A DNA stretch of 64,000 bases from an uncultured Pseudomonadota bacterium (GTDB lineage Bacteria; UBA10199; JADFYH01), in NCBI GenBank assembly GCA_964384365.1, contig CAYLKF010000002.1, forward strand, positions 98,840 through 162,839. Reading direction: 5' to 3'. Made by a program: the position numbers and the translations under genes. The notes under the pieces are model-generated. The model was not told the origin of the DNA. It saw only the letters and a list, made by a program, of their open reading frames with translations, and searched no databases. Shown piece after piece: positions 10,611 to 59,625 of the stretch (positions within the stretch are counted from its first letter, which is position 1; the number at the start of each line of letters is the position of its first letter).

Positions 10611-10695
10611 ACCTCCCCTCCTTACAAAGGAGGGGATTTAAGGGGAGGTCTCCAATAGGACCTCTCCCTCACCCTCTCCTTTGTAAGGAGAGGGA
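10611..10695. repeat. Tandem GC-rich palindromic hairpin repeats between cysC and cysH
   Basis: cccctcctt-acaa-aggagggg; ggaggtc..gacctc; ccctctccttt-gtaa-ggagaggg. Same family as the copies at 12872-12962, 14230-14252, 16240-16264, 41055-42305 and 59545-59625. Confidence 0.7.
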
Positions 10696-10702
10696 ATAAT
10701 AA

Positions 10703-11308
10703 TTAAATAATCCCTTTTTCCTGAAGCAAGTTTAGCACTTTTTGGGTGCTTTGTTCTAATGTTTCCTTGCCGGTTTCGAGGACGAGCTCGGGCTTATCGG
10801 GGGCTTCATAAGGAGCGGAAATGCCCGTAAATTCAGGAATCTGCCCGGCACGTGCTTTTTTGTATAAGCCTTTGGGGTCGCGGGCTTCGCATTCTTCAAC
10901 ACTCGCCGCACAATAAATTTCGAAGAATTGTCCTTCGGGTACTAATTTGCGGGCTAAATCGCGGTCTGCCTTATAAGGGGAGATGAAAGCGGTGAGAGTC
11001 ACCACATTTGACTCGCAGAAAAGTTTTGCTACTTCGCCAATGCGCCTAATATTTTCTTTTCGATCTTCGGGAGAAAATCCAAGATTTGAATTTAAGCCTT
11101 GGCGGATATTATCGCCATCGAGCACATAAGAATAGAGGCCATTTTCAACGAGGGCCAGCTCTACTTCGCGAGCGACGGTGGATTTTCCCGAAGCGGAAAG
11201 TCCGGTGAACCAGATCACTGCGCCTTGTTGCCCTAAACATTCTTGACGTTGGGCCGCGGTAAGTTTGCCATGGTGCCAGGTGAGATTTTTTGATTTGGGT
11301 TGAGTCAT
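10703..11308 (-). CDS. cysC: Adenylylsulfate kinase
   Basis: P-loop GLSASGKST and overall APS kinase length and sequence pattern. Confidence 0.85.
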   Translation of the reverse strand: MTQPKSKNLTWHHGKLTAAQRQECLGQQGAVIWFTGLSASGKSTVAREVELALVENGLYSYVLDGDNIRQGLNSNLGFSPEDRKENIRRIGEVAKLFCESNVVTLTAFISPYKADRDLARKLVPEGQFFEIYCAASVEECEARDPKGLYKKARAGQIPEFTGISAPYEAPDKPELVLETGKETLEQSTQKVLNLLQEKGII

Positions 11309-11345
11309 ATTTGCTCCTTTATTTTGAGGGCGCTGTTTAAGCCAA

Positions 11346-11930
11346 TTAAGAAGCCGGCGTCAAGGTCGTCTTCAAAAGATTTGCTTCTTCTGCCGAAAAA
11401 GGGAGTTTTAGAGCCAATAGGCGTGCTTTTTCGCTCATCTTGGCCCAAGTTTTTTGAATAATCGCGGGCATTTTTTCAGGAGGAGTTTTTTTCACAAAAT
11501 CCGAGAATTGGTATTCTAAGAAGACCAAGCAGAGGGCATCTTCCATGGTTTGGGTGTCCGGATCTTTTAAGTTTTTCTTGAGATTGATCGCTTTTACTTT
11601 TTCGATGATCTCTGAATTGTAGTTTAAACTCTTCAAAATTTTTTCGGCTTCGTCCGCATGAAATTGGTAAAGATATTTACGCCATTTTAAATACCCTATT
11701 TTTCCTTCTTCAAAATCCGTACGCGGAATCTCCCAACGTTTAAGGTGCTGACAGCGCGAGGCTAAAAGGAGGGCTTCCGAGGCTTGCGGATTCAATTTTT
11801 TCACCCATTCCGTCAGCCGCTGGGCATAAAGCAGTTCACGCGGATATTTTTTCCCCTGAACGAGTTCTAAATGGGGATCTTGTGAGTTTGCTTCATCGAA
11901 TTTTTCAAAGGCAATGCTAAGATTGGTCAT
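11346..11930 (-). CDS. Conserved hypothetical protein
   Basis: 194-aa ORF upstream of and co-oriented with the cys operon; no motif recognised. Confidence 0.45.
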   Translation of the reverse strand: MTNLSIAFEKFDEANSQDPHLELVQGKKYPRELLYAQRLTEWVKKLNPQASEALLLASRCQHLKRWEIPRTDFEEGKIGYLKWRKYLYQFHADEAEKILKSLNYNSEIIEKVKAINLKKNLKDPDTQTMEDALCLVFLEYQFSDFVKKTPPEKMPAIIQKTWAKMSEKARLLALKLPFSAEEANLLKTTLTPAS

Positions 11931-12016
11931 AGTTTCCCAATAGATTTTAGAGGCAACTTATTCATTCTCATTCCGATAATAGATTAAGGGCATACTTAAA
12001 ATATTCGGAGATTTCA

Positions 12017-12595
12017 ATGAAAGTGAATGATAATTCCCTTATTTCAAAAATTCCAAACTCAATGAATGTGGCTGCTTCTCCTCCCACGCCTGCATCTACT
12101 ATAGGGTCAAAAGATTCTTACGTTTTGTCCGAACAACGTGCTGATTTTTCCGCGCGTCTTAGGCCTGCTCCTAGGCCTCATCCTCGAATTCCTCGTCCCG
12201 TACCCGCACCAACACCTGTCCCAGGTCCTTCTGAAACTCAATGTCCAGAGGGATTGCCAGCCGGGTTTTGGCACGGAGATTTGCAGGTCGATGGACAAAG
12301 TCATCCTCTGATTGTGACTGAAGTCGATATGAGGACCGCAGAAGATGTGTTGCGACAATTACAAGTTTGCGAAAGTACTCCAATGATTGCATTCCGCCAT
12401 ACAGTGTTGGGCCATTCTTATTGGCTCATTATGCCACGTTCCGAATTTCCTGTTTCTTATTCACAAATTTGCAATGGTCAAATCCACAGTATTCGATTGC
12501 TTGGAGCAGGACCAATTCTTACTTTACCCATATCAGGTGCTCAATGTCCTGCGTTATCGGCTTTTGAAGCAAGGGGAGTAGTGTTAAGAAATTAA
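12017..12595 (+). CDS. Hypothetical protein with Pro-rich N-terminal region
   Basis: 192-aa ORF; RPAPRPHPRIPRPVPAPTPVPGP low-complexity stretch, then Cys-containing C-terminal domain; no signal peptide. Confidence 0.4.
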   Translation: MKVNDNSLISKIPNSMNVAASPPTPASTIGSKDSYVLSEQRADFSARLRPAPRPHPRIPRPVPAPTPVPGPSETQCPEGLPAGFWHGDLQVDGQSHPLIVTEVDMRTAEDVLRQLQVCESTPMIAFRHTVLGHSYWLIMPRSEFPVSYSQICNGQIHSIRLLGAGPILTLPISGAQCPALSAFEARGVVLRN

Positions 12596-12639
12596 CTTGG
12601 TATGAGTTTTTTTTAGCCTCCCGCATCGAAACTGTACCC

Positions 12640-12670
12640 TTGACAAGATTAACAAAGAAATTTTATACCC
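12640..12670 (+). promoter_or_regulatory. Putative sigma70-type promoter for the riboswitch-controlled operon
   Basis: TTGACA at 12640-12645, 17-nt spacer, TTATAC -10-like element, about 15 nt before the riboswitch P1. Confidence 0.35.
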
Positions 12671-12685
12671 ATTACACAATTTGTT

Positions 12686-12794
12686 GTCTTATCCAGAGTG
12701 GGTGAGGGAATGGCCCGATGACCCCACAGCAACCGCCTGTAAAGGAAGGTGCTAAATCCATCTCTTCGACGTTGAGTTGAAGGGGAAGATAAGG
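12686..12794 (+). promoter_or_regulatory. SAM-I (S-box) riboswitch aptamer
   Basis: cttatccAGAGtGGgtGAGGGAatGGCCCGATGAcCCCacaGCAACC...GGTGCTAAaTCC...gataag matches the conserved S-box core, with P1 closing pair cttatc/gataag. Confidence 0.75.
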
Positions 12795-12798
12795 AGAA

Positions 12799-12861
12799 AA
12801 CCTCTTCTTGTTCTACGGAGATTCTGGAAAGAAATCTTCGGAATAAGAAGAGGTTTTTTTT
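12799..12861 (+). terminator. Riboswitch expression-platform intrinsic terminator (attenuator)
   Basis: Long imperfect hairpin aacctcttcttgttctacggagattc...gaaatcttcggaataagaagaggtt followed by a T9 tract. Confidence 0.7.
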
Positions 12862-12871
12862 TACCATTATC

Positions 12872-12962
12872 TCCTCCTCTTAAGATTAAGAGGAGGTTGG
12901 GAGGAGTTGTGATCAATGAGTTTTCACAACTCCCCCTGACCCCCTCTTGATCTCAAGAGGGG
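12872..12962. repeat. Three palindromic hairpin repeats in the leader between the riboswitch terminator and the ThrC-like start codon
   Basis: cctcctctt-aagatt-aagaggagg; ggagttgtga..tcacaactcc; ccccctctt-gatc-tcaagaggggg. The last overlaps the RBS. Confidence 0.7.
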
Positions 12963-12984
12963 GAAGTAAAAGGAAAAAGTATTT

Positions 12985-14217
12985 ATGACACTGGTTAAAG
13001 GTTTAAAATGTCGGGAATGTGGCCACGGTTATCCAGTCACTCCTACCCATGTGTGTGAGTTTTGCTTTGGTCCGCTTGAAGTCGATTATAATTACGATGA
13101 AATCAAGAATGCTATTTCTCGGGAGAAAATTCTCTCTCGCCCCAAAACCATGTGGCGTTATAAAGAACTGCTTCCCATTGATCAAGAGCCGACGGTAGGC
13201 CGCTTAGCGGGCTTTACTCCTTTAGTGAAGGCCGATCGCTTGGCCAAGGCTTTGGGGGTGCAAGAACTTTATATTAAAAACGATGCGGTCTGTTACCCCA
13301 CCCTTTCTTTTAAAGATCGGGTGGTTTCAGTCGCACTTTCGAAAGCGAAGGAGTTCGGTTTTAAGGTAGTGGCTTGCGCCTCTACAGGTAATCTTGCAAA
13401 TTCTGTGGCGGCCAATGCAGCCAGTGCGGGCTTAGAAAGCTATGTATTTATTCCCCATGATTTAGAAGCGGGTAAGGTTTTAGGAACTCTCGTGTTTGGC
13501 TCCCACGTGGTGGGTATTCGGGGTACTTACGATGAAGTGAATCGCCTCTGCAGTGAAATTGCCGCCAAATATAAATGGGCGTTTGTGAATATTAACGTTC
13601 GACCTTTCTATGCCGAAGGTTCGAAGAGCTTATTTTTTGAAGTGATTGAGCAATTGGGTTGGAAAGTGCCCAAACATGTGGTGGTGCCGATGGCGAGTGG
13701 TTCTTTGCTTACGAAGGTGCACAAAGCCATTAAAGAATTTCAAAAAGTAGGTTTGATTGACTCCAGCGAGTGTAAAATCTATGGTGCCCAGGCTACCGGT
13801 TGCTCGCCCATTGCAACGGCTTTAAAAAGTGGATGGGATTTGTTTAAACCGGTTCGCCCGAATACAATCGCGAAATCTTTAGCGATCGGAAATCCGGCTG
13901 ATGGGTTTTATGCCATGCTCTCGATGAAAGAGACTGGCGGCTGGAGCGAAGATGTGTCGGATGATGAAATAGTTGACGCCATTAAACTTTTAGCTTCGAC
14001 TGAAGGGATCTTTACCGAAACCGCGGGTGGAGTCACTTTAGGGGTGACTAAAAAATTGATTGAACAAGGGAAAATCCCTAAAAATGAGTCTATCGTGATT
14101 TGCATTACCGGTAACGGACTTAAAACCCAAGAAGCGATTGCCGATAAAGTGGGTAAGACGACGATCATTAATGCCAAGCTTGCAGATTTCGATGCGGTTG
14201 TAGAAACGATGAAATAG
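12985..14217 (+). CDS. Threonine-synthase-family PLP enzyme with N-terminal zinc ribbon; candidate homocysteine-forming MetM-like enzyme
   Basis: N-terminal CxxC..CxxC ribbon (CRECGH...CEFC), fold-type II PLP lysine motif SFKDR, 410 aa. Sits behind a SAM riboswitch next to sulfur-carrier genes, so probably not a housekeeping thrC. Confidence 0.75.
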   Translation: MTLVKGLKCRECGHGYPVTPTHVCEFCFGPLEVDYNYDEIKNAISREKILSRPKTMWRYKELLPIDQEPTVGRLAGFTPLVKADRLAKALGVQELYIKNDAVCYPTLSFKDRVVSVALSKAKEFGFKVVACASTGNLANSVAANAASAGLESYVFIPHDLEAGKVLGTLVFGSHVVGIRGTYDEVNRLCSEIAAKYKWAFVNINVRPFYAEGSKSLFFEVIEQLGWKVPKHVVVPMASGSLLTKVHKAIKEFQKVGLIDSSECKIYGAQATGCSPIATALKSGWDLFKPVRPNTIAKSLAIGNPADGFYAMLSMKETGGWSEDVSDDEIVDAIKLLASTEGIFTETAGGVTLGVTKKLIEQGKIPKNESIVICITGNGLKTQEAIADKVGKTTIINAKLADFDAVVETMK

Positions 14218-14229
14218 ACCTCACCCCAA

Positions 14230-14252
14230 CCCTCTCTTTTGTAAGGAGAGGG
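14230..14252. repeat. Palindromic hairpin repeat
   Basis: ccctctcttt-tgta-aggagaggg, preceded by cctcacccc as in the 10611-10695 copy. Confidence 0.6.
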
Positions 14253-14270
14253 AGATTAGAAGGAGATAAA

Positions 14271-14522
14271 ATGTCTCACAACATTCGACGAAAAGTTTAT
14301 TTAACCTTTCCGGCTACCAAAACCAAAGAAGCGATTATTTGCGATATGTACGATAAATATAAAGTACGATTTAACATTCGCAATTCTTCGGTGACTCAAG
14401 AAGTTGGGATCATTGCACTAGAACTCGAAGCGCCGGAAGATAAGATGAATGAAGCGCTCAAATATTTTGAAAGTCGGGGCGTTTTAGTGGAGCCGGTGGA
14501 GATGGATGTTATAGCGGGTTAA
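14271..14522 (+). CDS. Small conserved protein (ACT/NIL-like ferredoxin-fold domain?)
   Basis: 83-aa ORF with good RBS (aggagat), alternating beta-alpha pattern; function uncertain. Confidence 0.4.
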   Translation: MSHNIRRKVYLTFPATKTKEAIICDMYDKYKVRFNIRNSSVTQEVGIIALELEAPEDKMNEALKYFESRGVLVEPVEMDVIAG

Positions 14523-14533
14523 TCCTCTTACAT

Positions 14534-15412
14534 ATGCAAAAAACAATTCTCGATCATATTGGCAATACGCCCCTTTACCAAGTGAGGATGTTTGAAAAAG
14601 AATTTCCGAAAGTAAAAATTTTCGCGAAGCTCGAATTCAATAATCCCGGTGGTTCGGTAAAAGATCGTCCGGCTGCGCGTATGGTTTTAGAAGGAATCAA
14701 GCGGGGCGACTTGAAACCAGGAAAAATCATCATGGATCCGACCAGCGGAAACACGGGCATTGCTCTTGCAATGATTGGTGCGGCGCTCGGTTATCCGGTC
14801 GAATTGGTAGTGCCTAAAAACGTGAGCCCGCGGCGTAAGGCCGTTGCTCAAAGTTTTGGGGCGAAGCTTACTTTTTCATCCGAGATGGAAGGCTCCGATG
14901 GTGCCATTCGCTTGGCGCAAAAACTCAAAAAAGAAAACTCTGAAAAATATTTTTGCCCCGATCAATATAATAATCCGTTGAATCCTCAAGCGCATGCCGA
15001 AACCACGGCCGTTGAAATCTGGAAACAAACCGATGGGAAAGTTACTCATTTTGTAACGGGGATCGGAACGAGCGGAACTCTAATGGGCACTTCGCGGGGT
15101 TTAAAAGGGTTCAATCCAAAAATTCAAACCTATGCGGTGGAGCCCGCCGATGCGCTCCATGGCTTAGAAGGTTTGAAGCATATGCCCAGCTCCATAGTGC
15201 CCGGAATTTATAAACGCGAAACGGTCGACGGGCTTTTTTCGATTCCCACCGAGCCTGCGTGGGAAGTTTGCGAGCGTTTGGCAAAAGAAGAGGGTATTTT
15301 AGTGGGCCATTCTTCGGGCGCTAATTTATTGGGGGCCGTTGAAGTTGCAAAACAAATTCAAGAAGGAATTGTGGTGACTGTTTTTTGTGATTCTGGGGAA
15401 AGATATTTATGA
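14534..15412 (+). CDS. cysM: Cysteine synthase family (CysM/CysK-like O-phosphoserine/O-acetylserine sulfhydrylase)
   Basis: PLP-lysine motif GGSVKDRPA, Gly-rich PLP loop GIGTSGT. 292 aa. Confidence 0.85.
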   Translation: MQKTILDHIGNTPLYQVRMFEKEFPKVKIFAKLEFNNPGGSVKDRPAARMVLEGIKRGDLKPGKIIMDPTSGNTGIALAMIGAALGYPVELVVPKNVSPRRKAVAQSFGAKLTFSSEMEGSDGAIRLAQKLKKENSEKYFCPDQYNNPLNPQAHAETTAVEIWKQTDGKVTHFVTGIGTSGTLMGTSRGLKGFNPKIQTYAVEPADALHGLEGLKHMPSSIVPGIYKRETVDGLFSIPTEPAWEVCERLAKEEGILVGHSSGANLLGAVEVAKQIQEGIVVTVFCDSGERYL

Positions 15413-16223: not shown

Positions 16224-16239
16224 TCACAACTCCTCCCCA

Positions 16240-16264
16240 CCTCCTCTTAATCTTAAGAGGAAGG
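16240..16264. repeat. Palindromic hairpin repeat
   Basis: cctcctctt-aatctt-aagaggaagg, preceded by tcacaactcctcccc (compare 12925-12940). Confidence 0.6.
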
Positions 16265-16266
16265 AT

Positions 16267-17448
16267 GTGCAGCGTTGTGAAGTTTTCATGCTTAACCCCG
16301 CACTACTCAAGCTTGAGCTCATTGCGTATGGAATTCATACCGAAGGCGAGGTTCCGCGGCCTTTGGCGAATCCGTTTGGCTTGGTTCATCTTGTTTTGCC
16401 CGAGACTACTGCAGTGAGTGTGCACGAAGTGAAAAGCGAAACGCCTTTTACTCTTTTTAAGAAAAAAGATCGGTTTTATTTAAGAGATAGCCGAAATAAA
16501 AAAGAGATTTCGATTTCGTGGACGCCCCCGCTTCAGAGTTATCAGAAAAAAACTTCTTCTGGGGTTTTGGTTTCCGATATTTTAACTGTTCACGGAGGCT
16601 ATATCGCCGTGCATCCTAAAGGGGCCTGCCGATTTGGAATGAGCGGACTCTCCTGCCGTTACTGCGGTTCTACGCGTGAGCTTTATAAGCATCCTCCCTT
16701 TACGAAAAAAGATCTCATCGAAGCTGTTGAAATTGTCTTGAAAGAAAAGAAATGTGAATTTTTGAATTTTTCATCGGGTCGTGTCGAAACCGAAGATGGC
16801 GGAGTACTCTGGCTTAAACCTTGGGTTGAAGAGATTCGACGTCACTTAGATCTTTTGATTTCACTCGATTTAGTTCCGCCCAAAACCAATGATTGGATTG
16901 ATCAAACTTATGCCATGGGAGTTGATGCGCTTTATTATGATCTCGATTTTTTTAACCCATTAGAAATGGAATCGACCCGGCAATTTCATCTTCAAGAAGA
17001 ACGGCACCTAGAAGCTTTAGCTTATGCCGCCAAGATTTTTCCGAAAGGCGCTGTGCTTTCGCACGTGGTGGTGGGCTTGGAGCCGGTGAAAGAAACCAAA
17101 AAAAAGGTTGATCTTTTATTGCAGCGCGGGGTGGTGCCGGTGCTGGCGTATTTTCCACCCGATTCAACTTCCGATTTAGTAAAAGTTTGGAAAGTAGAAC
17201 CCAAAGAACTCACTTCACTTTATGCGCATCTCTTTGAAGGCTTAGCCAAAACCAAAAACACTCCACATTGGGTGCAACAGCAAGATGTGGTGCTCACTCC
17301 TCTCGAAGGGCGATTTTTTTCCATTCGCTCGCCGGGTCTGCATCTCGCTCTAAAAGAATTTTATCAAACTTCTTTTGGAAGGGGCTTGAGAAGAAGCTTG
17401 GTAGGGGTGCGGCGAAAGTTCAAAAATCCCGCTAAAAATAAGAATTAG
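16267..17448 (+). CDS. Hypothetical protein with Cys-x8-Cys-x2-Cys motif (possible Fe-S/radical-SAM-like), last gene of the riboswitch operon
   Basis: GACRFGMSGLSCRYCGS motif; 393 aa; no canonical CX3CX2C. The start may be the downstream Met (MLNPALL). Confidence 0.5.
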   Translation: MQRCEVFMLNPALLKLELIAYGIHTEGEVPRPLANPFGLVHLVLPETTAVSVHEVKSETPFTLFKKKDRFYLRDSRNKKEISISWTPPLQSYQKKTSSGVLVSDILTVHGGYIAVHPKGACRFGMSGLSCRYCGSTRELYKHPPFTKKDLIEAVEIVLKEKKCEFLNFSSGRVETEDGGVLWLKPWVEEIRRHLDLLISLDLVPPKTNDWIDQTYAMGVDALYYDLDFFNPLEMESTRQFHLQEERHLEALAYAAKIFPKGAVLSHVVVGLEPVKETKKKVDLLLQRGVVPVLAYFPPDSTSDLVKVWKVEPKELTSLYAHLFEGLAKTKNTPHWVQQQDVVLTPLEGRFFSIRSPGLHLALKEFYQTSFGRGLRRSLVGVRRKFKNPAKNKN

Positions 17449-27052: not shown

Positions 27053-29008
27053 ATGCAAACTAAACGTGATGATCCTTGGCTGATGCGTACCTACTCCGGG
27101 CATAGCTCCGCGAAAGCCTCGAACGAACTCTACAAAACCAACCTTTCGAAAGGCCAAACGGGTTTATCGGTTGCCTTCGATTTACCCACCCAAACGGGCT
27201 ATGATTCCGATCATATTTTGGCCCGTGGAGAAGTGGGCAAAGTGGGAGTTCCGATTTCGAATATTGGCGATATGAAGATGCTTTTCCAAGATATTCCTTT
27301 GGAGAAGATGAATACCTCCATGACGATTAATGCCACGGCTGCTTGGTTGCTAGCGCTTTATATCGCCACGGCTGAAGACCAGGGCGCCAATACCAAGCTT
27401 CTTCAAGGCACGACTCAGAATGACATCATCAAAGAATATCTTTCACGCGGCACTTACGTGTTTCCGCCTGAACATTCGCTGCGTTTGATTGTCGACATGA
27501 TTTCGTATACGGTGAATGAAGTCCCGAAATGGAATCCCATCAATATTTGTAGCTACCATCTTCAAGAAGCAGGTGCCACGCCGGTTCAAGAAATTGCCTA
27601 CTCGATTTGCAATGCCATGGCCGTGCTCGATGCGGTAAAGGCCTCCGGAAAAGTTCCGGCCGATGTTTTTCCTAAAGTGGTGGGGCGTATTTCCTTTTTC
27701 GTGAATGCGGGGATTCGTTTTGTTGAAGAAATGTGCAAGATGCGCGCTTTTGTGAAGCTTTGGGATGAGCTCACGCGTACGCGCTATGGGGTAGAAGATC
27801 CGAAATATCGAATTTTCCGCTATGGAGTCCAAGTCAATTCTTTGGGCTTAACCGAACGCCAGCCCGAGAATAATATTGCCCGAATTATTTATGAAATGTT
27901 GGCGGTGACTTTATCGAAAGATGCGCGCGCGCGGGCGATTCAGCTTCCGGCCTGGAACGAAGCTTTAGGTTTGCCTCGTCCCTGGGATCAACAACTCTCA
28001 CTGCGCATGCAGCAAATTTTAGCCTATGAAACCGATCTTTTAGAATGCGGAGATATTTTTAATGGCTCCACGGTGATTGAAGCGAAGGTGAATGAGCTGA
28101 TAGAAGGTGCCAAAAAAGAGATTGAAAAAGTGCAACAAGCAGGGGGTGCCATTAAGGCGATTGAGATGATGAAGCAGGCCTTGGTGACTTCGCATGCCGA
28201 ACGGGTTCGCCGCATTGAAGCGGGAAATTTAAAAGTGATTGGTGTGAATTGTTTTCAAGAAGCAGCCCCTTCTCCCTTGATGGCTGGAGAAGACGAAGGC
28301 ATTTTAAAAGTCGATGCGCGCGCTGAAAAAGATCAGATCGAAAGTCTTAAAAAATTTAAGGCCTCGCGAAATGAAGAAACCGTGAAAAAAGCTTTAGAGG
28401 CTTTGAAAAAAGCGGCAAAAGGAAATGAGAATATCATGCCTCCTTCGATTGCCTGTGCCCATGCCGGGGTGACCACCGGTGAATGGGGCACGGCCCTTCG
28501 TGAAGTGTTTGGAGAATTTCGTGCACCCACCGGCGTTTCGGGCGTGAAGCTGGCCAGCACCACCGAAGCGATTGAGAAAGTGCGAGAAAAAGTAAAAGAG
28601 TTTGAAAAAAAGACGGGCGAAAAACTGCGTATTCTCGTCGGTAAACCCGGTTTAGATGGGCATAGTAATGGGGCCGAACAAATTGCTGTGCGGGCTCGCG
28701 ATGTAGGTATGGAAGTCATTTATCAAGGGATTCGCTTAACGCCTGAGCAAATTGCAGAGTCGGCCTTGCAAGAGGGGGTGCACTTGGTGGGGCTTTCGAT
28801 TCTTTCAGGGTCGCATCTAGAATTGATTCCCGAAGTGTTACGGCTTTTAAAAGAAAAAGGGCTTTCGAATGTGCCTGTGGTTGTGGGTGGGATTATCCCT
28901 GATTCCGATGCCAAAATGCTTGTCCAGCAAGGTGTTGCACGGGTTTACACGCCTAAGGATTTTGAGCTCAATCGTATCATGAGTGAAATGGTAGATTTAG
29001 CAGGCTAG
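27053..29008 (+). CDS. Fused B12-dependent acyl-CoA mutase (methylmalonyl/ethylmalonyl-CoA mutase family), catalytic TIM-barrel plus C-terminal cobalamin-binding domain
   Basis: [18 protein letters not shown] substrate-barrel signature; C-terminal DxHxxG B12-binding motif LDGHSNGAE. 651 aa single-chain size matches Ecm-like enzymes. Confidence 0.8.
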   Translation: MQTKRDDPWLMRTYSGHSSAKASNELYKTNLSKGQTGLSVAFDLPTQTGYDSDHILARGEVGKVGVPISNIGDMKMLFQDIPLEKMNTSMTINATAAWLLALYIATAEDQGANTKLLQGTTQNDIIKEYLSRGTYVFPPEHSLRLIVDMISYTVNEVPKWNPINICSYHLQEAGATPVQEIAYSICNAMAVLDAVKASGKVPADVFPKVVGRISFFVNAGIRFVEEMCKMRAFVKLWDELTRTRYGVEDPKYRIFRYGVQVNSLGLTERQPENNIARIIYEMLAVTLSKDARARAIQLPAWNEALGLPRPWDQQLSLRMQQILAYETDLLECGDIFNGSTVIEAKVNELIEGAKKEIEKVQQAGGAIKAIEMMKQALVTSHAERVRRIEAGNLKVIGVNCFQEAAPSPLMAGEDEGILKVDARAEKDQIESLKKFKASRNEETVKKALEALKKAAKGNENIMPPSIACAHAGVTTGEWGTALREVFGEFRAPTGVSGVKLASTTEAIEKVREKVKEFEKKTGEKLRILVGKPGLDGHSNGAEQIAVRARDVGMEVIYQGIRLTPEQIAESALQEGVHLVGLSILSGSHLELIPEVLRLLKEKGLSNVPVVVGGIIPDSDAKMLVQQGVARVYTPKDFELNRIMSEMVDLAG

Positions 29009-33050: not shown

Positions 33051-33076
33051 AAAAACAAATCAGTTCAAACAAAAAA

Positions 33077-33103
33077 AGGCAGCGAAACGCTGCCTTTTTT
33101 ATT
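33077..33103 (+). terminator. Rho-independent terminator after ccr
   Basis: ggcagcg-aaa-cgctgcc stem-loop followed by a T8 tract. Confidence 0.8.
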
Positions 33104-40639: not shown

Positions 40640-42436
40640 TTACGGCTGTTTTTCTAGAATTTTATGCCGTTGGAGTTTCCCATTCGCCGTTTTAGGGAGA
40701 CTTTTTACGAAATAAATCTGTTTCGGGCATTTATAGGCCGAGAGTTTTTTTTCGCATTCTTTTTTGATTTGTATTTCTAAATTTTCATCGGCTTCAAAAT
40801 CGGATTTCAAAACTAAAAAAGCCGTGACTAAAGTTTTGCCTGCTTCGATTTCTTTTCCAATCACGGCGGATTCTTCAATTTCGGGCATTGCATTCAAAAC
40901 CGTTTCGACTTCGAGGGGAGAGATGCGATAGCCGCCTGCCGTAATCACCTCATCGCGCCGGCCTAAGAAAAAGAAATTTCCGCTCTCGTCTTTTTGGGCG
41001 AGATCGCCGCTGAGGAAGTAATCATTTTTAAATCCCTCCACACCTCCCTTTACAAAGGGAGGGGGGGAAGTGTTTCCTCCTTTTGTAAAGGGGGATTCAG
41101 GGGGATTTTTTCGATAATATCCTAACATCAAGCCCGTGCAGGAAACATGCGTAGCGAGAATCCCAGGAGTATGGGGAGGTAGTTCTTTTCCTTCTTCATC
41201 CACAATCTCTATTTTCTGATCGGGCAAGGCTTTACCACAGGAGCCTTTCACAATTTCTTCGCCCACGCGCTGTACCAGATAAACACTATGTTCACTCATG
41301 CCTAAGCCTTCGTAAATCTCAAGTTCGGTGTAATTTTTAAATTTTTCACGAATTTCTTCGGGCAGTTTTTCGCCGGCGGAATTGCAAATGCGAACTCCAT
41401 CAAACCCCACCTTTATCCTCCCCTTGATCTCAAGGGGAGGTGGGGAGGGGTTTAGCTCAAAATATTCGACCAAGCGTCGATAAATTCCGGGCACGCTCAT
41501 GAAGGTTGTGATTCCAAATTGTTTGATGAGTTGGCAAATTTTTTCGGCGTTTAAAGGGCCATTGTAAATTAAGGTGGGGAGCCCGTGCCGCCAAACATCG
41601 AGCAGGCCTGCGGTGAGGGCGTAGCTCCAATTGAGGGTACTGGTGTTAAAAATTACATCATTGAAACGGAAATCGTTCCAAAGCTTTGCGCGTGTATCGT
41701 GAGCGGGAATACTGCGGTGCGCATGAATCACTGCTTTGGGTTTTCCTTCGGTGCCGCTCGTATAAAGCCAAAAGGCAGGGTCGTTTGCCTGAGTGGGTTC
41801 CGTTTGAAATTGAGAAGAAGAATTTTTTAAGAGATCTTGGAAACGGAGGACAGACCGCCCCCCGTCCCCCTTCTTGGTAAGGAGGGGGAGGAGAGACGCC
41901 GGAGTAATGCAAAGAATGTATTTTAAAGAAGGGAGAGAATTTTTCAGAATTTCTTTGGGGAATAATTCTTCCGTTGTAACCAGCACACTCGCTTCACTAT
42001 CTTCCAAAATAAATTTTAATTCATCTTCTGTCGCTTGAACGGAACTTGGAATCGGAATGATGCCTGCTTTGATTGCTCCTAAAAAAGTGATGGGAAATTC
42101 GGGAGAATTCGGAAGTCGCAAAACAAGCCTTTCTCCTTTTTGAAGCCCTAAATTTTTTAAGGCATTCGCAATTCGATTGGTCAGGCCTTCAAGATTTGAA
42201 AATGTGAATTTTTTGATTTCCAAGCTTCCTCCCTTTTGTAAAGGGAGGTCAGGAGGAATTTTTTGATCGAGAAATCCCCCTGTATCCCCCTTTTCCAAAG
42301 GGGGAGAGAGATCTTTCACATAAATCAATGCAGGCTTATGTTTGTTGTGGGGCGACTGCGCGTTTTTATCGATGCAATCGAGCGCAATGTTGTAAGAATT
42401 GAGCATAGCTCCCTCTAGCGGGCTTTGGGCTTGCAT
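40640..42436 (-). CDS. AMP-dependent synthetase/ligase (acyl-CoA synthetase) carrying four in-frame palindromic-repeat insertions
   Basis: Adenylate-forming motifs YTSGTEGKPKAV, GYY..P, SGDL, GRRDEVI..GGYRI, PKTANGKLQR. Extra peptides TKGGNTSPPPFVKGG, PSPPPLEIKGRIKVG, TKKGDGGRS and EKGDTGG...LPLQKGGS coincide with the DNA palindromes. Confidence 0.85.
   Translation of the reverse strand: MQAQSPLEGAMLNSYNIALDCIDKNAQSPHNKHKPALIYVKDLSPPLEKGDTGGFLDQKIPPDLPLQKGGSLEIKKFTFSNLEGLTNRIANALKNLGLQKGERLVLRLPNSPEFPITFLGAIKAGIIPIPSSVQATEDELKFILEDSEASVLVTTEELFPKEILKNSLPSLKYILCITPASLLPLLTKKGDGGRSVLRFQDLLKNSSSQFQTEPTQANDPAFWLYTSGTEGKPKAVIHAHRSIPAHDTRAKLWNDFRFNDVIFNTSTLNWSYALTAGLLDVWRHGLPTLIYNGPLNAEKICQLIKQFGITTFMSVPGIYRRLVEYFELNPSPPPLEIKGRIKVGFDGVRICNSAGEKLPEEIREKFKNYTELEIYEGLGMSEHSVYLVQRVGEEIVKGSCGKALPDQKIEIVDEEGKELPPHTPGILATHVSCTGLMLGYYRKNPPESPFTKGGNTSPPPFVKGGVEGFKNDYFLSGDLAQKDESGNFFFLGRRDEVITAGGYRISPLEVETVLNAMPEIEESAVIGKEIEAGKTLVTAFLVLKSDFEADENLEIQIKKECEKKLSAYKCPKQIYFVKSLPKTANGKLQRHKILEKQP
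41055..41115. repeat. Palindromic repeat pair inside the acyl-CoA synthetase CDS
   Basis: cctcccttt-acaa-agggaggg and cctcctttt-gtaa-aggggg. Confidence 0.7.
41404..41445. repeat. Nested palindromic repeat inside the acyl-CoA synthetase CDS
   Basis: ccccacc...cctcccctt-gatc-tcaaggggagg...ggtgggg. Confidence 0.7.
41850..41895. repeat. GC-rich palindromic repeat inside the acyl-CoA synthetase CDS
   Basis: ccgccccccgtcccccttc-ttggtaa-ggagggggaggag. Confidence 0.6.
42228..42305. repeat. Palindromic repeat pair inside the acyl-CoA synthetase CDS
   Basis: cctccctttt-gtaa-agggagg and tccccctttt-ccaa-aggggga. Confidence 0.7.
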
Positions 42437-42506
42437 TCAACCGGTAAAACAAAAACCTCCTGGTCGGATGACGCAGGAGGTTTTTAGGGTAGGGAGGGTA
42501 GATGAG

Positions 42507-54812: not shown

Positions 54813-55562
54813 TTGAAAAATTGGTTAGCGGTGAAAAAAACTCAGATCACATTTCAATTACAGGCACCTCATCTTTGGACCCTCGAAAGCTTGATGCAAA
54901 TCCAGGGCATCCCTTCTGTTTTTGTGCCTCCGTTACCTGCCTGGATTGAGCAAATGCCTATTCGGATGACCGTTGTTGAGCTTCCCGAGAAGAAATTGTT
55001 TTTACATTCTCCTGTTCCCCTCACGGAAGAGGTAAAACAAGAACTGGATTCTTTAGGAGAAGTTGCTTTTGTGGTGGCGCCGAGTCTACTTCATCATGTG
55101 AATGTTTTGTCTTATGCCCAAAATTATAAAAAAGCCTTATGTCTCATGCCTCAAAATTTAAAAAAGAAACGGCGAGATTTAGAGAGTTTTTCTTATTTAG
55201 AAGATCATCCACGCTTTGCTGCTCCTCATCTCGAGCAGATCTTGCTTGCCGGGCATCGTTCCGAAGAAACAGCTTTTTTTCATCCTTCAACTCGCACCCT
55301 CATTGTGGCGGATCTTTGCTATAACCCGGGGATGGAGCAGGGTTTCTTAGGAAGGACTTTTTTTAAAATAGTTGGTGCTTATGGCAAGCCGAGTTTACCT
55401 TTCTATCATCGCTTCGCGGTGAGCGATGCCAAAGCTCTAAAACAATCTTTAGAAAAAATTCTCAGTTGGGATTTTGACCGAATCATTCTCTCTCACGGAA
55501 CAATCATCCCCAATAATGGGAAAGAAATTTTTCAGAAAATATGGGCCTGGGCGTTGAAATAG
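54813..55562 (+). CDS. Conserved hypothetical protein
   Basis: 249-aa ORF, several His-rich positions (SLLHHVNV, LAGHRSEE, ILSHGT) suggesting a metal-dependent fold; not assigned. Confidence 0.45.
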   Translation: MKNWLAVKKTQITFQLQAPHLWTLESLMQIQGIPSVFVPPLPAWIEQMPIRMTVVELPEKKLFLHSPVPLTEEVKQELDSLGEVAFVVAPSLLHHVNVLSYAQNYKKALCLMPQNLKKKRRDLESFSYLEDHPRFAAPHLEQILLAGHRSEETAFFHPSTRTLIVADLCYNPGMEQGFLGRTFFKIVGAYGKPSLPFYHRFAVSDAKALKQSLEKILSWDFDRIILSHGTIIPNNGKEIFQKIWAWALK

Positions 55563-55564
55563 CC

Positions 55565-55984
55565 TTAACGGGTGCTGACGAGACGAATTTCAATATCTTG
55601 TTGGGGGGCGAGCACCGAAATAAATTCTTGTAGCTTAGAGAGGCTGGGCTCGGAGCGCCCTTGTTCGTATTGAGCGTAGGCATTTTTTGATTTTGTTTTG
55701 AGTTTTTTTGCCATTTCACTCAAGCTGATATTTTTCAGGGCTCGCTGGCGTTTTAGCATTAAAGACAGGAGAGAAATCGGATTGTTAGAGCTTAAGAAGA
55801 ATGTGTTTTTACTGTGTGGGATGATTTTAATTCTCAATCCTTTGTCATTTAAAAGGAGTTCGAGAGCATTCCCGAGCATGAAATAGGCTTCTTTCTTAGA
55901 TTTTGCTTGGGTGAGTAAGTCTAATACAGGGATTTCAATTAACCACCACTTTTTGTGTTTACGAATTTTGCCTTCCAAAATCAT
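55565..55984 (-). CDS. hicB: HicB-family antitoxin with C-terminal XRE-type HTH
   Basis: N-terminal HicB fold region (WWLIEIPVLDLLTQAKSKKEA); C-terminal HTH NISLSEMAKKLKTKSKNAYAQYEQGRSEPSLSKL; 4-nt overlap with hicA. Confidence 0.7.
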   Translation of the reverse strand: MILEGKIRKHKKWWLIEIPVLDLLTQAKSKKEAYFMLGNALELLLNDKGLRIKIIPHSKNTFFLSSNNPISLLSLMLKRQRALKNISLSEMAKKLKTKSKNAYAQYEQGRSEPSLSKLQEFISVLAPQQDIEIRLVSTR

Positions 55985-56199
55985 AAAATTCCCCTCGAGT
56001 GATATTTAGCTTTTTTCAGAATTTTTTTTGCCAAGAGCTCATTGATTTCTTTGTGCCTTGGAATGGGTTCTTCTAATTCTCCATTCGACCAAATTTCGTG
56101 TTTGGATCCCTGGCGAAGAAGATACCATCCTTTTGATTTTAATTTGTAGATAAGCTCTTTATACTTCATAAGTATACATAAATTAATGTACGATGTCAA
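55981..56199 (-). CDS. hicA: HicA-family mRNA interferase toxin
   Basis: KELIYKLKSKGWYLLRQGSKHEIW matches the HicA GW.L.RQ.GSH core. The true start is probably the internal Met (MKYKEL). Confidence 0.7.
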   Translation of the reverse strand: MTSYINLCILMKYKELIYKLKSKGWYLLRQGSKHEIWSNGELEEPIPRHKEINELLAKKILKKAKYHSRGIL

Positions 56200-56326
56200 T
56201 GAGGGGTGGCGATTGGAAACCTATGAAGCAAAAGAGAGGCCAATATTTTTATTCTATTTAATGGGAGATGAAAGGCGTGGGGTCTGGTTTTCGGACATTT
56301 GAGGGTCCGATTTCCGGAATTGAAGT

Positions 56327-56731
56327 CTAACTCATTTTCCGCAATTTTCCTAAAGTAAGAAGGCTTAAAAACAGAAGAGGGGCAAGGGCGATCAGATAAA
56401 AAAGCCCCAAAGCAAAAGCGAAGGGGAGAAATAAGGTTAAGAGAGCACTCAGTGCCGCCAAAACATACAGAAGAAGAAAGAGAGAATGAAGAATCTTGGC
56501 AAGTTTGAGACTTGTAGGCGATTGGAGGAGTAGCAAAACTCCGGTTAAGCTTAAAAAAATGAGAATTCCAATTGTTGCGGGAGATAAAGAGAAGCCAGTA
56601 GAAACTTGAATTTCTTGATCTTGCGGGTAGACGTTGATGAAGTGTTGAAAAAAGTAAGCGAAGAATAGCAATGCTAGCCCAAGTGTGAAGTGGGCGAAGG
56701 CTAAATATTTGAGGTGTGGGTTTTTATTCAC
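56327..56731 (-). CDS. Small membrane protein, hypothetical
   Basis: 134 aa, 4 TM helices. Confidence 0.4.
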   Translation of the reverse strand: MNKNPHLKYLAFAHFTLGLALLFFAYFFQHFINVYPQDQEIQVSTGFSLSPATIGILIFLSLTGVLLLLQSPTSLKLAKILHSLFLLLYVLAALSALLTLFLPFAFALGLFYLIALAPLLFLSLLTLGKLRKMS

Positions 56732-56743
56732 CGGAGCCCTAAT

Positions 56744-58402
56744 CTACACCACAATCCGCTCGCGATACAGCCCAAAAACCTCACGCATCGTATCGCTAAT
56801 TTCTCCGAGAGTGGTGTAGCAACGAACCGCATTCAAAATATGCGGCATCAAATTTTCGTTTCCTTTGGCGGCTTGAGTGAGTCTTTCTCGCGCCGCTTTT
56901 ACAGCCCCGTTATCGCGTTTTTCACGAAGTTTTTTCAAGCGCTCGCACTGCTTAATTTCAATCGAGGGGTCGACCCGTAAAATATCTTTTACGGCTTCTT
57001 CCTTCTTTTGAAATTTATTCACGCCCACAATAATAATTTTTTCCTCTTCGATCGCTTTTTGATATTGATACGCCGCTTCTTGGATTTCGCGTTGTTGAAA
57101 GCCGGCTTCAATTCCTTTTACGGCGCCGCCCAGTTTATCGATTTTCTCAATGTATTCTAAGGCGCGTTTTTCGATTTCGTCCGTCAACGATTCCACCACG
57201 TAAGATCCGGCGAAAGGATCAATCGTATCGGTTACGCCCGTTTCATAAGCAATCAATTGTTGAGTGCGCAGCGCCAGGGTTGCCGAGGCTTCGGTGGGGA
57301 GGGCTAGGGCTTCGTCGCGTCCATTGGTGTGAAGACTTTGAGTTCCACCAAAAACCGCAGAAAGCGCCTGGAAAGCCACGCGAATTCCATTGTTATCGAT
57401 CTGCTGCGCGGTGAGTGTAGAGCCCCCGGTTTGGGTATGAAAACGAAGCATGCAGCTGCGATCGGTCGCGTTGAAGCGCTGCTTCATCAATTTTGCCCAA
57501 AGACGCCGAGCCGCGCGAAACTTTGCCACTTCTTCAAGAAAATTATTGTGCGAATTAAAAAAGAAAGAGAGGCGCGAGGCGAAGTCATCCACCTTCAAGC
57601 CTTTATCAACCGCGGCTTTCACGTAAGCCAAGCCATTTGCCAAAGTGAACGCAACTTCTTGCACGGCCGTCGATCCGGCTTCGCGAATATGATAGCCCGA
57701 GATTGAAATCGTATTCCATTTGGGAACAGAATCTTTGCAGAAGGCAAACATATCGGTAATGATTCGCATCGAGTGTTCGGGCGGGTAGATATAGGTACCC
57801 CGGGCGATGTATTCTTTGAGTAAATCGTTTTGAACGGTGCCCGAAATTTTATCGGCAGTGACGCCCTGTTTTTCGGCAACAGCCATGTAGAGAGCCAAAA
57901 GAATAGAAGCGGTGGAATTAATCGTCATCGAAGTCGAAACTTTATCGAGGGGGATTTGGTTAAACAAAATTTCCATATCTTCGAGCGAATCGATGGCAAC
58001 TCCGGCCTTTCCCACTTCGCCCTTTGAACGCGGCGAATCGGAATCGTAACCCATTTGAGTGGGCAGATCGAAAGCGACCGAAAGCCCTGTTCCACCATTT
58101 TCAATCAGATAGCGGTAACGTTTGTTCGATTCTTCAGCGGTCGCAAAACCGGCATACATGCGCATGGTCCAGTAGCGCCCACGATACATGGTGGGTTGAA
58201 CGCCGCGGGTGAAGGGAAATTGGCCGGGAAAATTCAGTTCTTCAAGATAGCTCGGATCAGGATTTTCAGGAAGATACAGTCTTTCAAGCTCGATTCCCGA
58301 AGAATTCGTAAACTGTTTTTTACTTTCCGGATCGCGTGCTAACGATTTTGCTAAAGTGGTTTCTTCCCATTTTTTGAAGGCTTCTTTGGTTTTGTCAGAC
58401 AT
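56744..58402 (-). CDS. B12-dependent acyl-CoA mutase large (catalytic) subunit without fused B12-binding domain (IcmA/McmA-like)
   Basis: [50 protein letters not shown] signature; 552 aa; no C-terminal DxHxxG domain. Confidence 0.8.
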
Positions 58403-58477
58403 ATGAAGTTCCTGTTTAAAAATAACTTTGTCATCCTCCGACTTGATCGGGGGATCCAGTTTGAATAAATAGATTCC

Positions 58478-58492
58478 TCCGCCTCAGGCGGA
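58478..58492. promoter_or_regulatory. 15-nt palindrome TCCGCCTCAGGCGGA in divergent promoter region
   Basis: Second copy of the 44116-44130 palindrome with matching flanks (cTCCGCCTnAGGCGGAc). Confidence 0.4.
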
Positions 58493-58606
58493 CGGGAATG
58501 ACACAAATTCTGGACCCTATTCAATAATAAGGGTCAATTCAACGGCTTTTTCATTTTGAGAAAAACGCAAAATAAGCTAGCGCTCTAGCCTTATCGAGGA
58601 GGGTTT

Positions 58607-59533
58607 ATGTCACTTCCCATTGGAAAAGCCACAGCCATTACCTTTAAAACAATTCCCTACATTTTTTTGCGTTTCTTTGTTTATTTTTTGTTTGGTTTAG
58701 GAATTTTGTTTTATGGCCTTTTTGTCTATTGGATTGGGCAGGCTGCGGCCCACCTTCACGAAAATGCACGCGTGATCGTTTGGATTTTAGGCTTTATCCT
58801 TTCTTTCCCAATTACCCGCTTGCTCCGAGAATATGTCATTTACATCATTAAGGCTGGGCATGTGGCAGTGATTACCGAGCTTGCTACCGTGGGGCGTTTG
58901 CCCGAAGGGCAGAGTCAAATTAGCTGGGGGAAAGATCAAGTTACAAAAACCTTTAAAGAAGTTTCGGTTTTATTTGTAATGGATCGTCTCGTGGTGGGGG
59001 TGATTCGAAGTATTAATGCCATGATGCAGCGGGTGGGTAGCATGTTTTCTGCCATTCCCGGTATGGAGACGATTGCGAAATTTGCAGGATTAGTTTTGCG
59101 TTTTTCACTCACGTATGTCGATGAAGCGATCTTGGCCCGAAATTTTAAAATGAAAAATGAATCGGTTTGGGAATCGGCCAAAAAAGGTTTGGTGCTTTAT
59201 GCGCAGAGTTGGCAAGAAATTTTAAAGACGGCTCTTTTTTTAGGGGCTGTTGCTTTTTTCTCTTATGTTTTTTTGGTGATTTTATTTTTGATTCCTCTTT
59301 GGGGTATTTCAACGGCGTATCCGCATTATCAGTGGGTATTTATTTTGGCGGCCTTTGTTTTTGCAGGCGTCTTAAAGCTCGCTTTTTTTGATCCTTGGGC
59401 AATGACGATTTTAATTTTGACCTATTTAGAAGCGACCGAAGGAAAGATTGCAGACCCCGCTTGGGAAGAAAAACTTCAAGGCCTGTCTTCTTCTTTTCAA
59501 AAAATTCGAGATCGAGCGTTGCAAAGTTCTTAA
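58607..59533 (+). CDS. Integral membrane protein, hypothetical
   Basis: 308 aa with about 6 TM helices. Confidence 0.5.
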   Translation: MSLPIGKATAITFKTIPYIFLRFFVYFLFGLGILFYGLFVYWIGQAAAHLHENARVIVWILGFILSFPITRLLREYVIYIIKAGHVAVITELATVGRLPEGQSQISWGKDQVTKTFKEVSVLFVMDRLVVGVIRSINAMMQRVGSMFSAIPGMETIAKFAGLVLRFSLTYVDEAILARNFKMKNESVWESAKKGLVLYAQSWQEILKTALFLGAVAFFSYVFLVILFLIPLWGISTAYPHYQWVFILAAFVFAGVLKLAFFDPWAMTILILTYLEATEGKIADPAWEEKLQGLSSSFQKIRDRALQSS

Positions 59534-59544
59534 TTTTTTTAATG

Positions 59545-59625
59545 AACCCCTCACCCTACCCCTGGTTCGACAGGCTCACCACGCCGTCTCCCCAGAGGGG
59601 AGAGGGTGAAGGGGAAAGGTATGTC
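59545..59625. repeat. Palindromic repeat element upstream of the Kir channel gene
   Basis: cccctcaccctacccc ... tctcccc-aga-ggggaga-gggtgaagggg; related to the cctcaccc/ccctctcc family. Confidence 0.55.

Follow-up and report, generated by a model that had tools for sequence, protein, structure and literature searches.

Dispersed repeats, probably of the BoxC/PIT/TM triplex-motif kind, in an uncultured bacterial lineage

To our knowledge, neither a function nor a mode of spread has been established for the BoxC/PIT/TM repeats since they were recognised in the 1990s. The repeats analysed here are short hairpin sequences dispersed over a 64-kb stretch of DNA (contig CAYLKF010000002.1, hereafter the window) from an uncultured lineage with a GC content of about 43%. 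They are best explained as structure-defined, non-coding potential intrastrand triplex elements of the BoxC/PIT/TM kind, a reading drawn from sequence patterns and given a probability of roughly 0.75.

In Escherichia coli and other bacteria, such elements have been described as BoxC (1990s; Bachellier), PIT (Hoyne and Maher 2000, 2002) and TM or TMECO (Holder et al. 2015) (PMC4666352). The TMECO consensus is CCCTCNCCC-N3-6-GGGNGAGGG-N3-GGGNGAGGG, and a typical copy reads CCCTCTCCCTTGAGGGAGAGGGTTAGGGTGAGGGT (PMC4666352). TMECO copies are reported as 'always intergenic' and without orientation preference; no promoter or terminator activity was reported for these E. coli relatives, their loci are unusually variable between strains, and inverted pairs combine a type A with a type B copy, facing inward in 4 of 5 cases by the coordinates of Table 1 (PMC4666352). 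The Rickettsia palindromic element (RPE) family (Ogata et al. 2000; summarised in PMC10969869) consists of repeats of about 100-150 bp with family-specific conserved peptides in Rickettsiales hosts.

Enrichment and polarity of the hairpins

A scan for a perfect 7-nt pyrimidine-only arm (at least 4 C) followed 2-14 nt away by its reverse complement returned 12 sites in the window (10614, 10672, 12873, 12940, 14230, 28269, 41043, 41417, 41865, 42228, 42285 and 59587); 200 dinucleotide-preserving shuffles averaged 0.34 and never exceeded 3. Two imperfect sites lay beyond these (16242 and 41075), while the hairpin at 28269-28292 is probably a chance match. With the polarity reversed, the same scan found no purine-arm-first hairpin in the window. 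The triplex-rule scan (stems of 7-12 nt, loop 1 of 2-12 nt, loop 2 of 1-6 nt, at most one bad triad) recovered 14 motifs on 12 hairpins, compared with a mean of 0.06 and a maximum of 2 in 100 dinucleotide shuffles. Stems of these motifs measured 7-10 nt, loop 1 2-9 nt and loop 2 1-5 nt, both loops being no longer than 6 nt in 12 of the 14.

The initial annotation of the window had described a dispersed, over-represented family, both intergenic and intragenic; both counts stand far above the composition expectation, and direct reading revealed palindromes at every locus it had named. Its consensus, CCCTCYYTT-N(2-8)-AAGGAGGG, matched literally at one site only, because stems vary between copies yet stay complementary. 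The central stem parts fall into a few types (TTTGTAA/TTACAAA, TTGATCTCAA, TTAAGATTAA/TTAATCTTAA). Taken as plain motifs, the literal consensus and the flanks CCTCACCC and TCACAACTCC were too narrow or non-significant alone.

The probability that the repeats reflect chance, base composition or assembly error, with AGGAGG strings resembling Shine-Dalgarno (SD) sequences that meet accidental partners, is practically nil. The arms are indeed of low complexity and one hairpin is itself likely fortuitous, but the shuffles stayed far below both counts, the same units occur in independent assemblies from JGI, ENA and NCBI, and in-frame copies keep the reading frame of a conserved enzyme. Shuffle controls and recurrence across assemblies refute this explanation.

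Three-domain units and covariation of the third domain

A unit spans about 33-40 nt and comprises a C-rich pyrimidine arm, a complementary purine arm with which it forms the hairpin, and a third block mirroring the purine arm, which adjoins almost every hairpin and is separated from it by a loop of 1-6 nt. Examples of such mirrors (block and pyrimidine arm) are CTCCTCC and CCTCCTC, CTCCCCC and CCCCCTC, CCTCTCCC and CCCTCTCC at 10660-94, and CCTCCCCT and TCCCCTCC at 10614-60. Read as purines, the third block runs antiparallel to the purine arm with G opposite G and A or T opposite A, which is the purine-motif triple-helix rule; on the complementary strand the same unit runs third domain, pyrimidine arm, purine arm, an order that fits a pyrimidine-motif triplex. 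The 'shared 5' flanks' that had been noticed earlier are real, and the mirror-match and triad tests identify them as this third structural domain.

For the third-domain test, 162 unique hairpin sides were pooled from the window and 111 related loci (cited below by L numbers) and scored by the triad rules G.G-C, A.A-T or T.A-T with the third block antiparallel to the purine arm. At least seven consecutive valid triads were found on 47 of the 162 sides, against 8 in the parallel-register control, and permuting purine-rich flanks among hairpins gave a mean of 8.5 and a maximum of 19 over 1000 permutations, compared with 40 observed. Mirror matches outnumbered direct-repeat matches by 41 to 13; readings of the flank as a direct repeat or an alternative hairpin scored below the mirror reading in this comparison and in the triad test, and were rejected. 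A matching third domain was present for 13 of 21 distinct purine-arm 7-mers, and the three-way match persists across at least 13 stem sequences in the window and related loci. As single-stranded DNA, the third block could occupy the major groove of the hairpin through G.G-C, A.A-T and T.A-T triads.

The 40-nt unit exists as a T variant (TCACAACTCCTCCC-NN-CCTCCTCTTAATCTTAAGAGGAGG) and a C variant (TCACAACTCCCCCT-NN-CCCCCTCTT..AAGAGGGGG). Some units stand alone, but it is more usual for two units with unlike stems to form an inverted pair (about 85-130 nt); the third domains face inward in 19 of 27 pairs. Conserved ends extend beyond the structure (TCACAAC/GTTGTGA and GACC/GGTC).

Comparison with described families

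The sequence features that characterise PIT/TM elements (G/C-rich class II-IV) were found here: three blocks on one strand with stems of at least 6-8 nt, short loops and no more than one mismatched triad, triad rules tracking the stem, over-representation and hypervariable loci. As in BoxC/PIT/TMECO, the blocks are a pyrimidine arm, a purine arm and a reverse-Hoogsteen block, with a second loop of about 3 nt; stems are conserved and loops variable, presence is patchy among close relatives without a phage or plasmid link, and inverted pairs are always heterotypic (A + B in E. coli, T + C here) and mostly inward-facing. The GACC-type stems CCCTCTCC, GGAGAGGG and GGGTGAGG are near-identical to the TMECO blocks CCCTCTCCC, GGGAGAGGG and GGGTGAGGG, and the minus strand at 14252-14218 reads CCCTCTCCTTACAAAAGAGAGGGTTGGGGTGAGGT, comparable to the typical TMECO copy. 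This three-domain unit places the repeats with BoxC/PIT/TM rather than with classic REP or MITE elements. The literal TMECO consensus had no exact match in the window, the nearest copies (10660-94, 3 substitutions; 14218-52, 4 substitutions; 59584-618) all lying within 3-4 substitutions, and the repeats were therefore classed as a new sequence family or variant within the BoxC/PIT/TM kind. BLAST against E. coli genomes gave no match, as expected for a short low-complexity query. Run as a control on 23 published TMECO sequences, the scanner recovered 10 with the window settings (pure-pyrimidine arm) and 21 with the arm rule relaxed.

Unlike TMECO, the units here have stems lengthened by T/A pairs near the loop and the extra conserved ends TCACAAC and GACC, inhabit an uncultured lineage of about 43% GC, also lie in-frame inside genes, and show an orientation bias towards start codons (23 versus 8, see below) that was not reported for TMECO. 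Occurrence in-frame in unrelated housekeeping genes at fold-compatible positions, as well as between genes, is shared with the palindromic RPEs, which are the closest precedent for in-frame palindromic inserts; the units here are shorter (33-40 nt, pairs about 90-130 nt), unrelated in sequence, translated into Pro/Ser...Lys/Gly/Glu loops and composed of three domains, whereas no triplex-type third domain is known for RPEs. As in H-DNA, the third domain together with the adjacent arm makes up a mirror repeat within a homopyrimidine/homopurine tract; here the same strand also carries an inverted repeat linked to that mirror repeat, so that one strand could supply all three triplex strands.

The initial annotation had likened the family to REP/MITE-type elements. 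Like REP/BIME/REPIN sequences, the repeats are short GC-rich extragenic palindromes, often inverted doublets between operon genes, that yield mRNA hairpins. They could accordingly be ordinary REP/REPIN or MITE hairpins mobilised in trans by a RAYT (IS200/IS605-like) or another transposase, the third domain being a conserved terminal recognition sequence instead of a triplex strand. The resemblance of the doublets to REPINs, ends conserved beyond structural need, copies at unrelated loci and a REP-like GTAG...CTAC palindrome that replaces two units in L001 all agree with such an origin. It is nevertheless improbable: the third domain changes with the stem in at least 13 variants, by triplex rules and in the mirror rather than the direct or inverted register, as a fixed protein-recognition end would not. 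Moreover, the arms are strictly homopyrimidine or homopurine in one polarity only; units never bear a GTAG head, starting with TCACAAC or GACC, no terminal inverted repeats or insertion-sequence-like ends were seen on them, and neither target-site duplications nor, within the window, a transposase or Y1 domain were found.

In-frame copies within protein-coding genes

Seven of the 14 motif calls of the window (five hairpins and one degenerate) lie in-frame in one acyl-CoA synthetase gene, which holds six copies (41043, 41075, 41417, 41865, 42228 and 42285) where four had been annotated.

40640-42436, minus strand: acyl-CoA synthetase gene (598 aa; Pfam AMP-binding and AMP-binding_C) with six in-frame copies
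41031-41069, no strand assigned: in-frame unit, hairpin CCTCCCTTT-ac-AAAGGGAGG (41043-41062) with third-domain matches on both sides; peptide ..SPPPFVKGGVEGF..
41075-41106, plus strand: in-frame unit TCCTCCTT-ttgta-AAGGGGGA-ttc-AGGGGGAT; peptide ..NPPESPFTKGG..
41403-41452, no strand assigned: in-frame unit, hairpin CCTCCCCTT-gatctc-AAGGGGAGG (41417-41440) with third domains GGAGGGGTT and GGTGGGGTT; peptide ..NPSPPPLEIKGRIKVG..
41865-41889, no strand assigned: degenerate in-frame hairpin TCCCCCTTCTT-ggt-AAGGAGGGGGA; peptide ..LLPLLTKKGDGG..
42228-42260, plus strand: in-frame unit CCTCCCTTT-tgt-AAAGGGAGG-tca-GGAGGAATT, in an inverted pair with 42273-42305; peptide ..PPDLPLQKGGS..
42273-42305, minus strand: in-frame unit TCCCCCTTT-gga-AAAGGGGGA-tac-AGGGGGATT with 9/9 valid triads; peptide ..SPPLEKGDTGGF..

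The core peptides of the six copies are SPPLEKGDTGG, PPDLPLQKGG, LLPLLTKKGDGG, PSPPPLEIKGRIKVG, PESPFTKGG and SPPPFVKGGVEG. An exact look-up of this synthetase and of the protein P0001 gave no recorded match. Orthologs of the enzyme range from 522 to 588 aa, with length differences exactly at the insert positions. In those of L108, L109 and L110, different triplex-type sequences occupy four or five of these positions (for example CCCTCACCCC-a-CCCCTCTCCC-ctcga-GGGAGAGGG), and that of L111 carries none. The L001 gene (87% nucleotide identity) has three sites in common with the window (four motif calls), lacks the 41403-41452 copy, and has the GTAG...CTAC palindrome in place of two triplex units at window positions 41040-41110. 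The third domain of 41865-41889, mutated in the window, is intact in L001 (GACCTCCCCCC-g-TCCCCCTCC).

Insert positions coincide with gaps relative to the orthologs and to the solved acetyl-CoA synthetase 9g79, and an AlphaFold model, taken as supporting evidence only given its moderate quality (mean predicted local distance difference test score, pLDDT, of 67), places the inserts in coil with pLDDT below 50. The in-frame copies sit at indel-prone positions that look permissive. A stop codon requires a T followed by purines, so that arms made of pyrimidines or purines alone have no stop in any frame, which helps to explain the in-frame tolerance. In-frame triplex-type units were also present in other metagenome-assembled genomes (MAGs), at L091 4143-4188, L006 20062-20143 and 5370-5404, L090 5789-5819 and L099 1509-1554, in genes for NAD-dependent DNA ligase (LigA), Ppx/GppA phosphatase, a PD40-repeat protein, apolipoprotein N-acyltransferase (Lnt) and Kdo transferase (WaaA).

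Palindromes of other types were seen in the acyl-CoA synthetase gene. L001 holds in-frame, at about 11270-11300, a perfect 28-nt palindrome with REP-like ends, GTAGGGGCAAATAATTATTTGCCCCTAC. In L110, at about 6035-6105 (P0017 residues 348-371), there is an in-frame insert of another palindromic repeat, ..CCCTGCGAAAGCAGGGG..GGATTCCCGCTTTCGCGGGAATGAC.., with the peptide PAKAGGQ...SRFRGND, and the gene hence collects several kinds of small palindromes. No literature report of repeat-derived peptides such as SRFRGND was found.

Intergenic copies and their gene context

The remaining copies of the window lie in spacers between genes, where only one sequence, a S-adenosylmethionine (SAM) riboswitch, reaches the Rfam gathering score; the repeats are covered by no known Rfam family, and no tRNA was found near them.

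10614-10650, plus strand: class II triplex motif TCCCCTCCTT-aca-AAGGAGGGGA-ttta-AGGGGAGGTC
10659-10694, minus strand: class II triplex motif CCCTCTCCTT-aca-AAGGAGAGGG-tga-GGGAGAGGTC, inverted partner of 10614-10650
12686-12795, plus strand: SAM riboswitch aptamer (Rfam)
12873-12912, plus strand: T-variant unit CCTCCTCTT-aagatt-AAGAGGAGG-ttg-GGAGGAGTT with the conserved end GTGA, left half of an inverted pair
12924-12963, minus strand: C-variant unit, the plus strand reading TCACAACTCCCCCT-ga-CCCCCTCTT-gatctc-AAGAGGGGG, right half of the pair; ATG at 12985
14217-14252, minus strand: single unit GACCTCACCCC-aa-CCCTCTCTTT-tgt-AAGGAGAGGG, beginning at the stop codon of the thrC-like gene
16224-16264, minus strand: single T-variant unit TCACAACTCCTCCCC-a-CCTCCTCTTAATCTTAAGAGGAAGG, beginning directly after the ThiS-like stop codon
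59547-59614, plus strand: interrupted unit upstream of the Kir-type channel gene, third domain CCCCTCACCC (59547-56) and hairpin CCGTCTCCCC-aga-GGGGAGAGGG (59584-59606)

The first pair fills the cysC-cysH spacer (10606-10702); on the mRNA (minus) strand, the order within its 10614-10650 unit is third domain, pyrimidine arm, purine arm, and the unit stops 8 nt short of the cysH ATG (10605). Pfam upheld the earlier gene context, with APS kinase at 10703-11308, PAPS reductase at 9853-10605 and an IRK-type channel, and also supports the ThiS-like gene next to the radical-SAM gene. The copies placed earlier in a riboswitch leader do follow a SAM riboswitch, but the pair (12873-12963) lies downstream of its terminator, outside the aptamer, and before the thrC-like start. 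On the 3' side of the 14217-14252 unit stand an SD sequence and the ATG (14271) of a gene for a NIL-domain protein. Upstream of the Kir-type channel, TGAAGGGG follows the hairpin, with the ATG at 59621.

Several side observations touch these copies. A GTTGTGA at 16272-16278 pairs with the TCACAAC at 16224-30 and looks like the remnant of an inverted partner, which makes the GTG start at 16267 given by the open reading frame (ORF) finder doubtful and the ATG at 16288 more likely. A second small repeat, GGTTCGACAGGCTCACCACG (59564-59583), splits the third domain from the hairpin upstream of the Kir-type channel, and one further copy with 2 mismatches is present at L065 1834-1853. The segment 12686-17448 comprises the SAM riboswitch and terminator followed by an operon encoding a thrC-like pyridoxal phosphate (PLP) enzyme with an N-terminal zinc ribbon, a NIL-domain protein, a CysK/M-like PLP enzyme, a Prok-JAB protease, a ThiS-like sulfur carrier and a radical-SAM protein; it resembles a sulfur-carrier-protein pathway leading to homocysteine or methionine. 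The Kir-type channel gene is followed downstream by genes for a ParE-like toxin and a PIN-domain protein (60489-60761 and 62163-62570), which are likely toxin-antitoxin modules. Two hairpins of the ordinary terminator-like type between A and T runs, at 33072-33100 (AAAAAAGGCAGCG-aaa-CGCTGCCTTTTTT) and 42446-42482 (AAAAACCTCCTGGTCGGATGACGCAGGAGGTTTTT), do not belong to the repeat family.

Dispersal and turnover among relatives

Although the family had appeared specific to this genome, its 40-nt subfamily (TCACAACTCC...) was found in at least nine MAGs whose labels span several phyla. A search with the pattern TCACAACTCCYCCYNNCCYCCYCTT over one GTDB genome per species, for which about 0.3 chance matches were expected, returned 35 copies on 26 stretches, and the purine arm was present in 33 of the 35, though the pattern did not demand it. 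Most copies were in four MAGs labelled 'uncultured Pseudomonadota', including L104, which is 98% identical to window positions 12671-14069; single copies occurred in MAGs labelled Gallionella, Thermodesulfovibrionales (a 3.6-Mb chromosome), Omnitrophota, Deltaproteobacteria and Chitinophagaceae. The repeats had no match in viral contigs, phage records or plasmids. Adjoining the riboswitch and repeat pair, window positions 11932-12671 (0.74 kb, with an unannotated 192-aa ORF) correspond to about 2.7 kb in L104 (1403-4165).

Window positions 9-16 kb were compared with the syntenic loci L003 (thrC-like protein 91% identical, DNA about 75%) and L084 (DNA about 73%). The spacer from the riboswitch terminator to the ATG measures 122 nt in the window, where it holds two units, and 11 and 9 nt in L003 and L084, respectively, both of which lack the pair. 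The cysC-cysH spacer contains a GACC-type pair in the window. In L084 it has TCACAAC-type units, oriented the same way ahead of the cysH ATG, and in L003 neither a recognisable unit nor an obvious SD sequence was found before cysH. The spacer between the thrC-like and NIL-domain genes holds one unit in the window; L084 has the orthologous unit and an extra inverted partner. Occupancy, for which a comparison of relatives had been proposed, therefore differs between the window and L001, L003, L084 and L005, and turns over quickly between syntenic relatives.

The GACC-type pair of the cysC-cysH spacer (about 95 nt) shares 86% identity with a pair that precedes thrC in L005 and also aligns with pairs in L084 and L091, making four different loci or genomes in all; pairs thus recur as units at unrelated places.

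Translation starts and RNA folding

About 994 kb of loci contained 96 motifs, which cluster in a minority of these loci. Read as third domain, pyrimidine arm, purine arm, 23 of the 96 are followed, 3-20 nt beyond the purine arm, by the start of an ORF of at least 80 aa, compared with 8 of 96 in the opposite orientation, and each of the four aligned GACC-type pairs terminates immediately ahead of a start codon. Window genes with a unit so placed are cysH (8 nt), the NIL-domain gene, the radical-SAM gene and the thrC-like gene. The reported overlap with ribosome-binding sites was borne out, an AGGAGG-like arm lying 2-20 nt before the start at cysH, the Kir channel and the radical-SAM gene. As evidence of a real preference, the bias is only suggestive, because it partly follows from the inward-facing design of pairs and because copies are not independent.

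Folding of the copies, as had been advised, yielded stable RNA hairpins: in Watson-Crick-only predictions, single units reached -12 to -20 kcal/mol, and pairs formed one long hairpin of -59 and -66 kcal/mol (z = -6 and -9), their opposite strands folding at -57 and -64 kcal/mol. Folding is as stable on one strand as on the other, so nothing points to a constraint specific to the sense RNA, and sense-strand RNA structure was rejected as the constraint.

A role in donating ribosome-binding sites or stabilising mRNA is plausible from the sequences. In a rival explanation, the repeats would be selected cis-acting RNAs that tune operon expression as portable ribosome-binding modules, as intercistronic mRNA stabilisers or as SD-sequestering hairpins, perhaps sensitive to pH or temperature via C+.G-C RNA triples. 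Hairpin stability, the start-codon orientation and the GACC-type pairs would fit this, as would the cysH start, which is preceded by units of different subfamilies in the same orientation in the window and L084; pyrimidine-motif triplexes can also form in RNA, according to the introduction of Holder et al. (PMC4666352). Against it, copies occur in both orientations and within coding sequence, close relatives have no units at the same genes, pair folding energy is the same on both strands, and the bias owes part of its size to pair architecture; in work cited at second hand in PMC4666352, E. coli PIT elements had no promoter or terminator effect. Selection as cis-acting RNA is accordingly rated unlikely.

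Proposed mechanism

The reading of the repeats as potential intrastrand triplex elements builds on their three-domain anatomy, enrichment, covariation of third domain and stem, dispersal, rapid turnover and in-frame tolerance. Units would multiply and vanish via events on transiently single-stranded DNA, during replication or repair, and the constraint would act there. They would spread by a trans-acting or recombinational route, may home to sequences resembling their arms (SD sites, Pro/Gly codon runs), and would persist where harm is small, in spacers between operon genes and surface loops of proteins. Heterotypic pairs would survive because perfect long palindromes would not. Stable mRNA hairpins and strong AGGAGG-like ribosome-binding sequences would be by-products that selection may sometimes use.

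Empty sites often held an arm-like run: gCCCCCTTG in L111 corresponds to the arm TCCCCCTTT of the window, AAGGGGGA to its AAAGGGAGG, and the SD sequence GAGGAGTTGAT of L003 to the window third domain GGAGGAGTTGTGAT. Such sequences hint that units may be targeted by arm-like homology.

Several points weigh against the triplex-element reading. In E. coli, a triplex was observed in vitro with isolated single strands (TMECO oligonucleotides) only; neither duplex DNA nor footprinting in vivo revealed one (PMC4666352). C/T and G/A low-complexity runs inflate mirror and direct matches alike, and some third domains contain A (CCTCACCC), which fits the purine motif of the other strand, not the pyrimidine motif. 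No target-site duplication was demonstrable between filled and empty sites, which at only 73-87% identity leave insertion junctions ambiguous; one possible AATA repeat lies at the extra L084 unit. No transposase, RAYT or Y1 domain was detected by Pfam among the approximately 58 ORFs of the window. The orientation bias (23 versus 8) hints at function or targeting, which a purely selfish or neutral picture does not predict. Finally, all sequences, the window included, are MAGs or metagenome contigs, and the counts include related copies that are not independent events.

Implications

A broader proposal, held tentatively and with the odds somewhat against it, is that these triplex-motif repeats are a short-unit counterpart of the Rickettsia RPEs, lying in-frame in surface loops of housekeeping proteins, aided by arms that leave no room for a stop codon, and oriented directly upstream of start codons, where the purine arm serves as an SD sequence, and that they may home to arm-like runs. 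Covariation over at least 13 stem variants would then be the first comparative evidence that triplex-forming ability is maintained in vivo. If true, this would go beyond what the E. coli TMECO experiments could give. The many stem variants of the lineage make the third-strand match testable by covariation, which is impossible with the nearly identical E. coli copies.

The features most worth attention are that the repeats occupy protein loops in-frame, where and in which orientation they stand ahead of starts, and how richly their stems covary. The repeats can take the place of native ribosome-binding regions and become protein parts, which matters for the annotation of MAGs, where they can appear as spurious 'PSPxGEG'-like peptides, odd insertions and wrong starts (e.g. 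16267). Should the targeting idea be true, it would offer a route to how triplex-prone DNA moves in and destabilises bacterial genomes.

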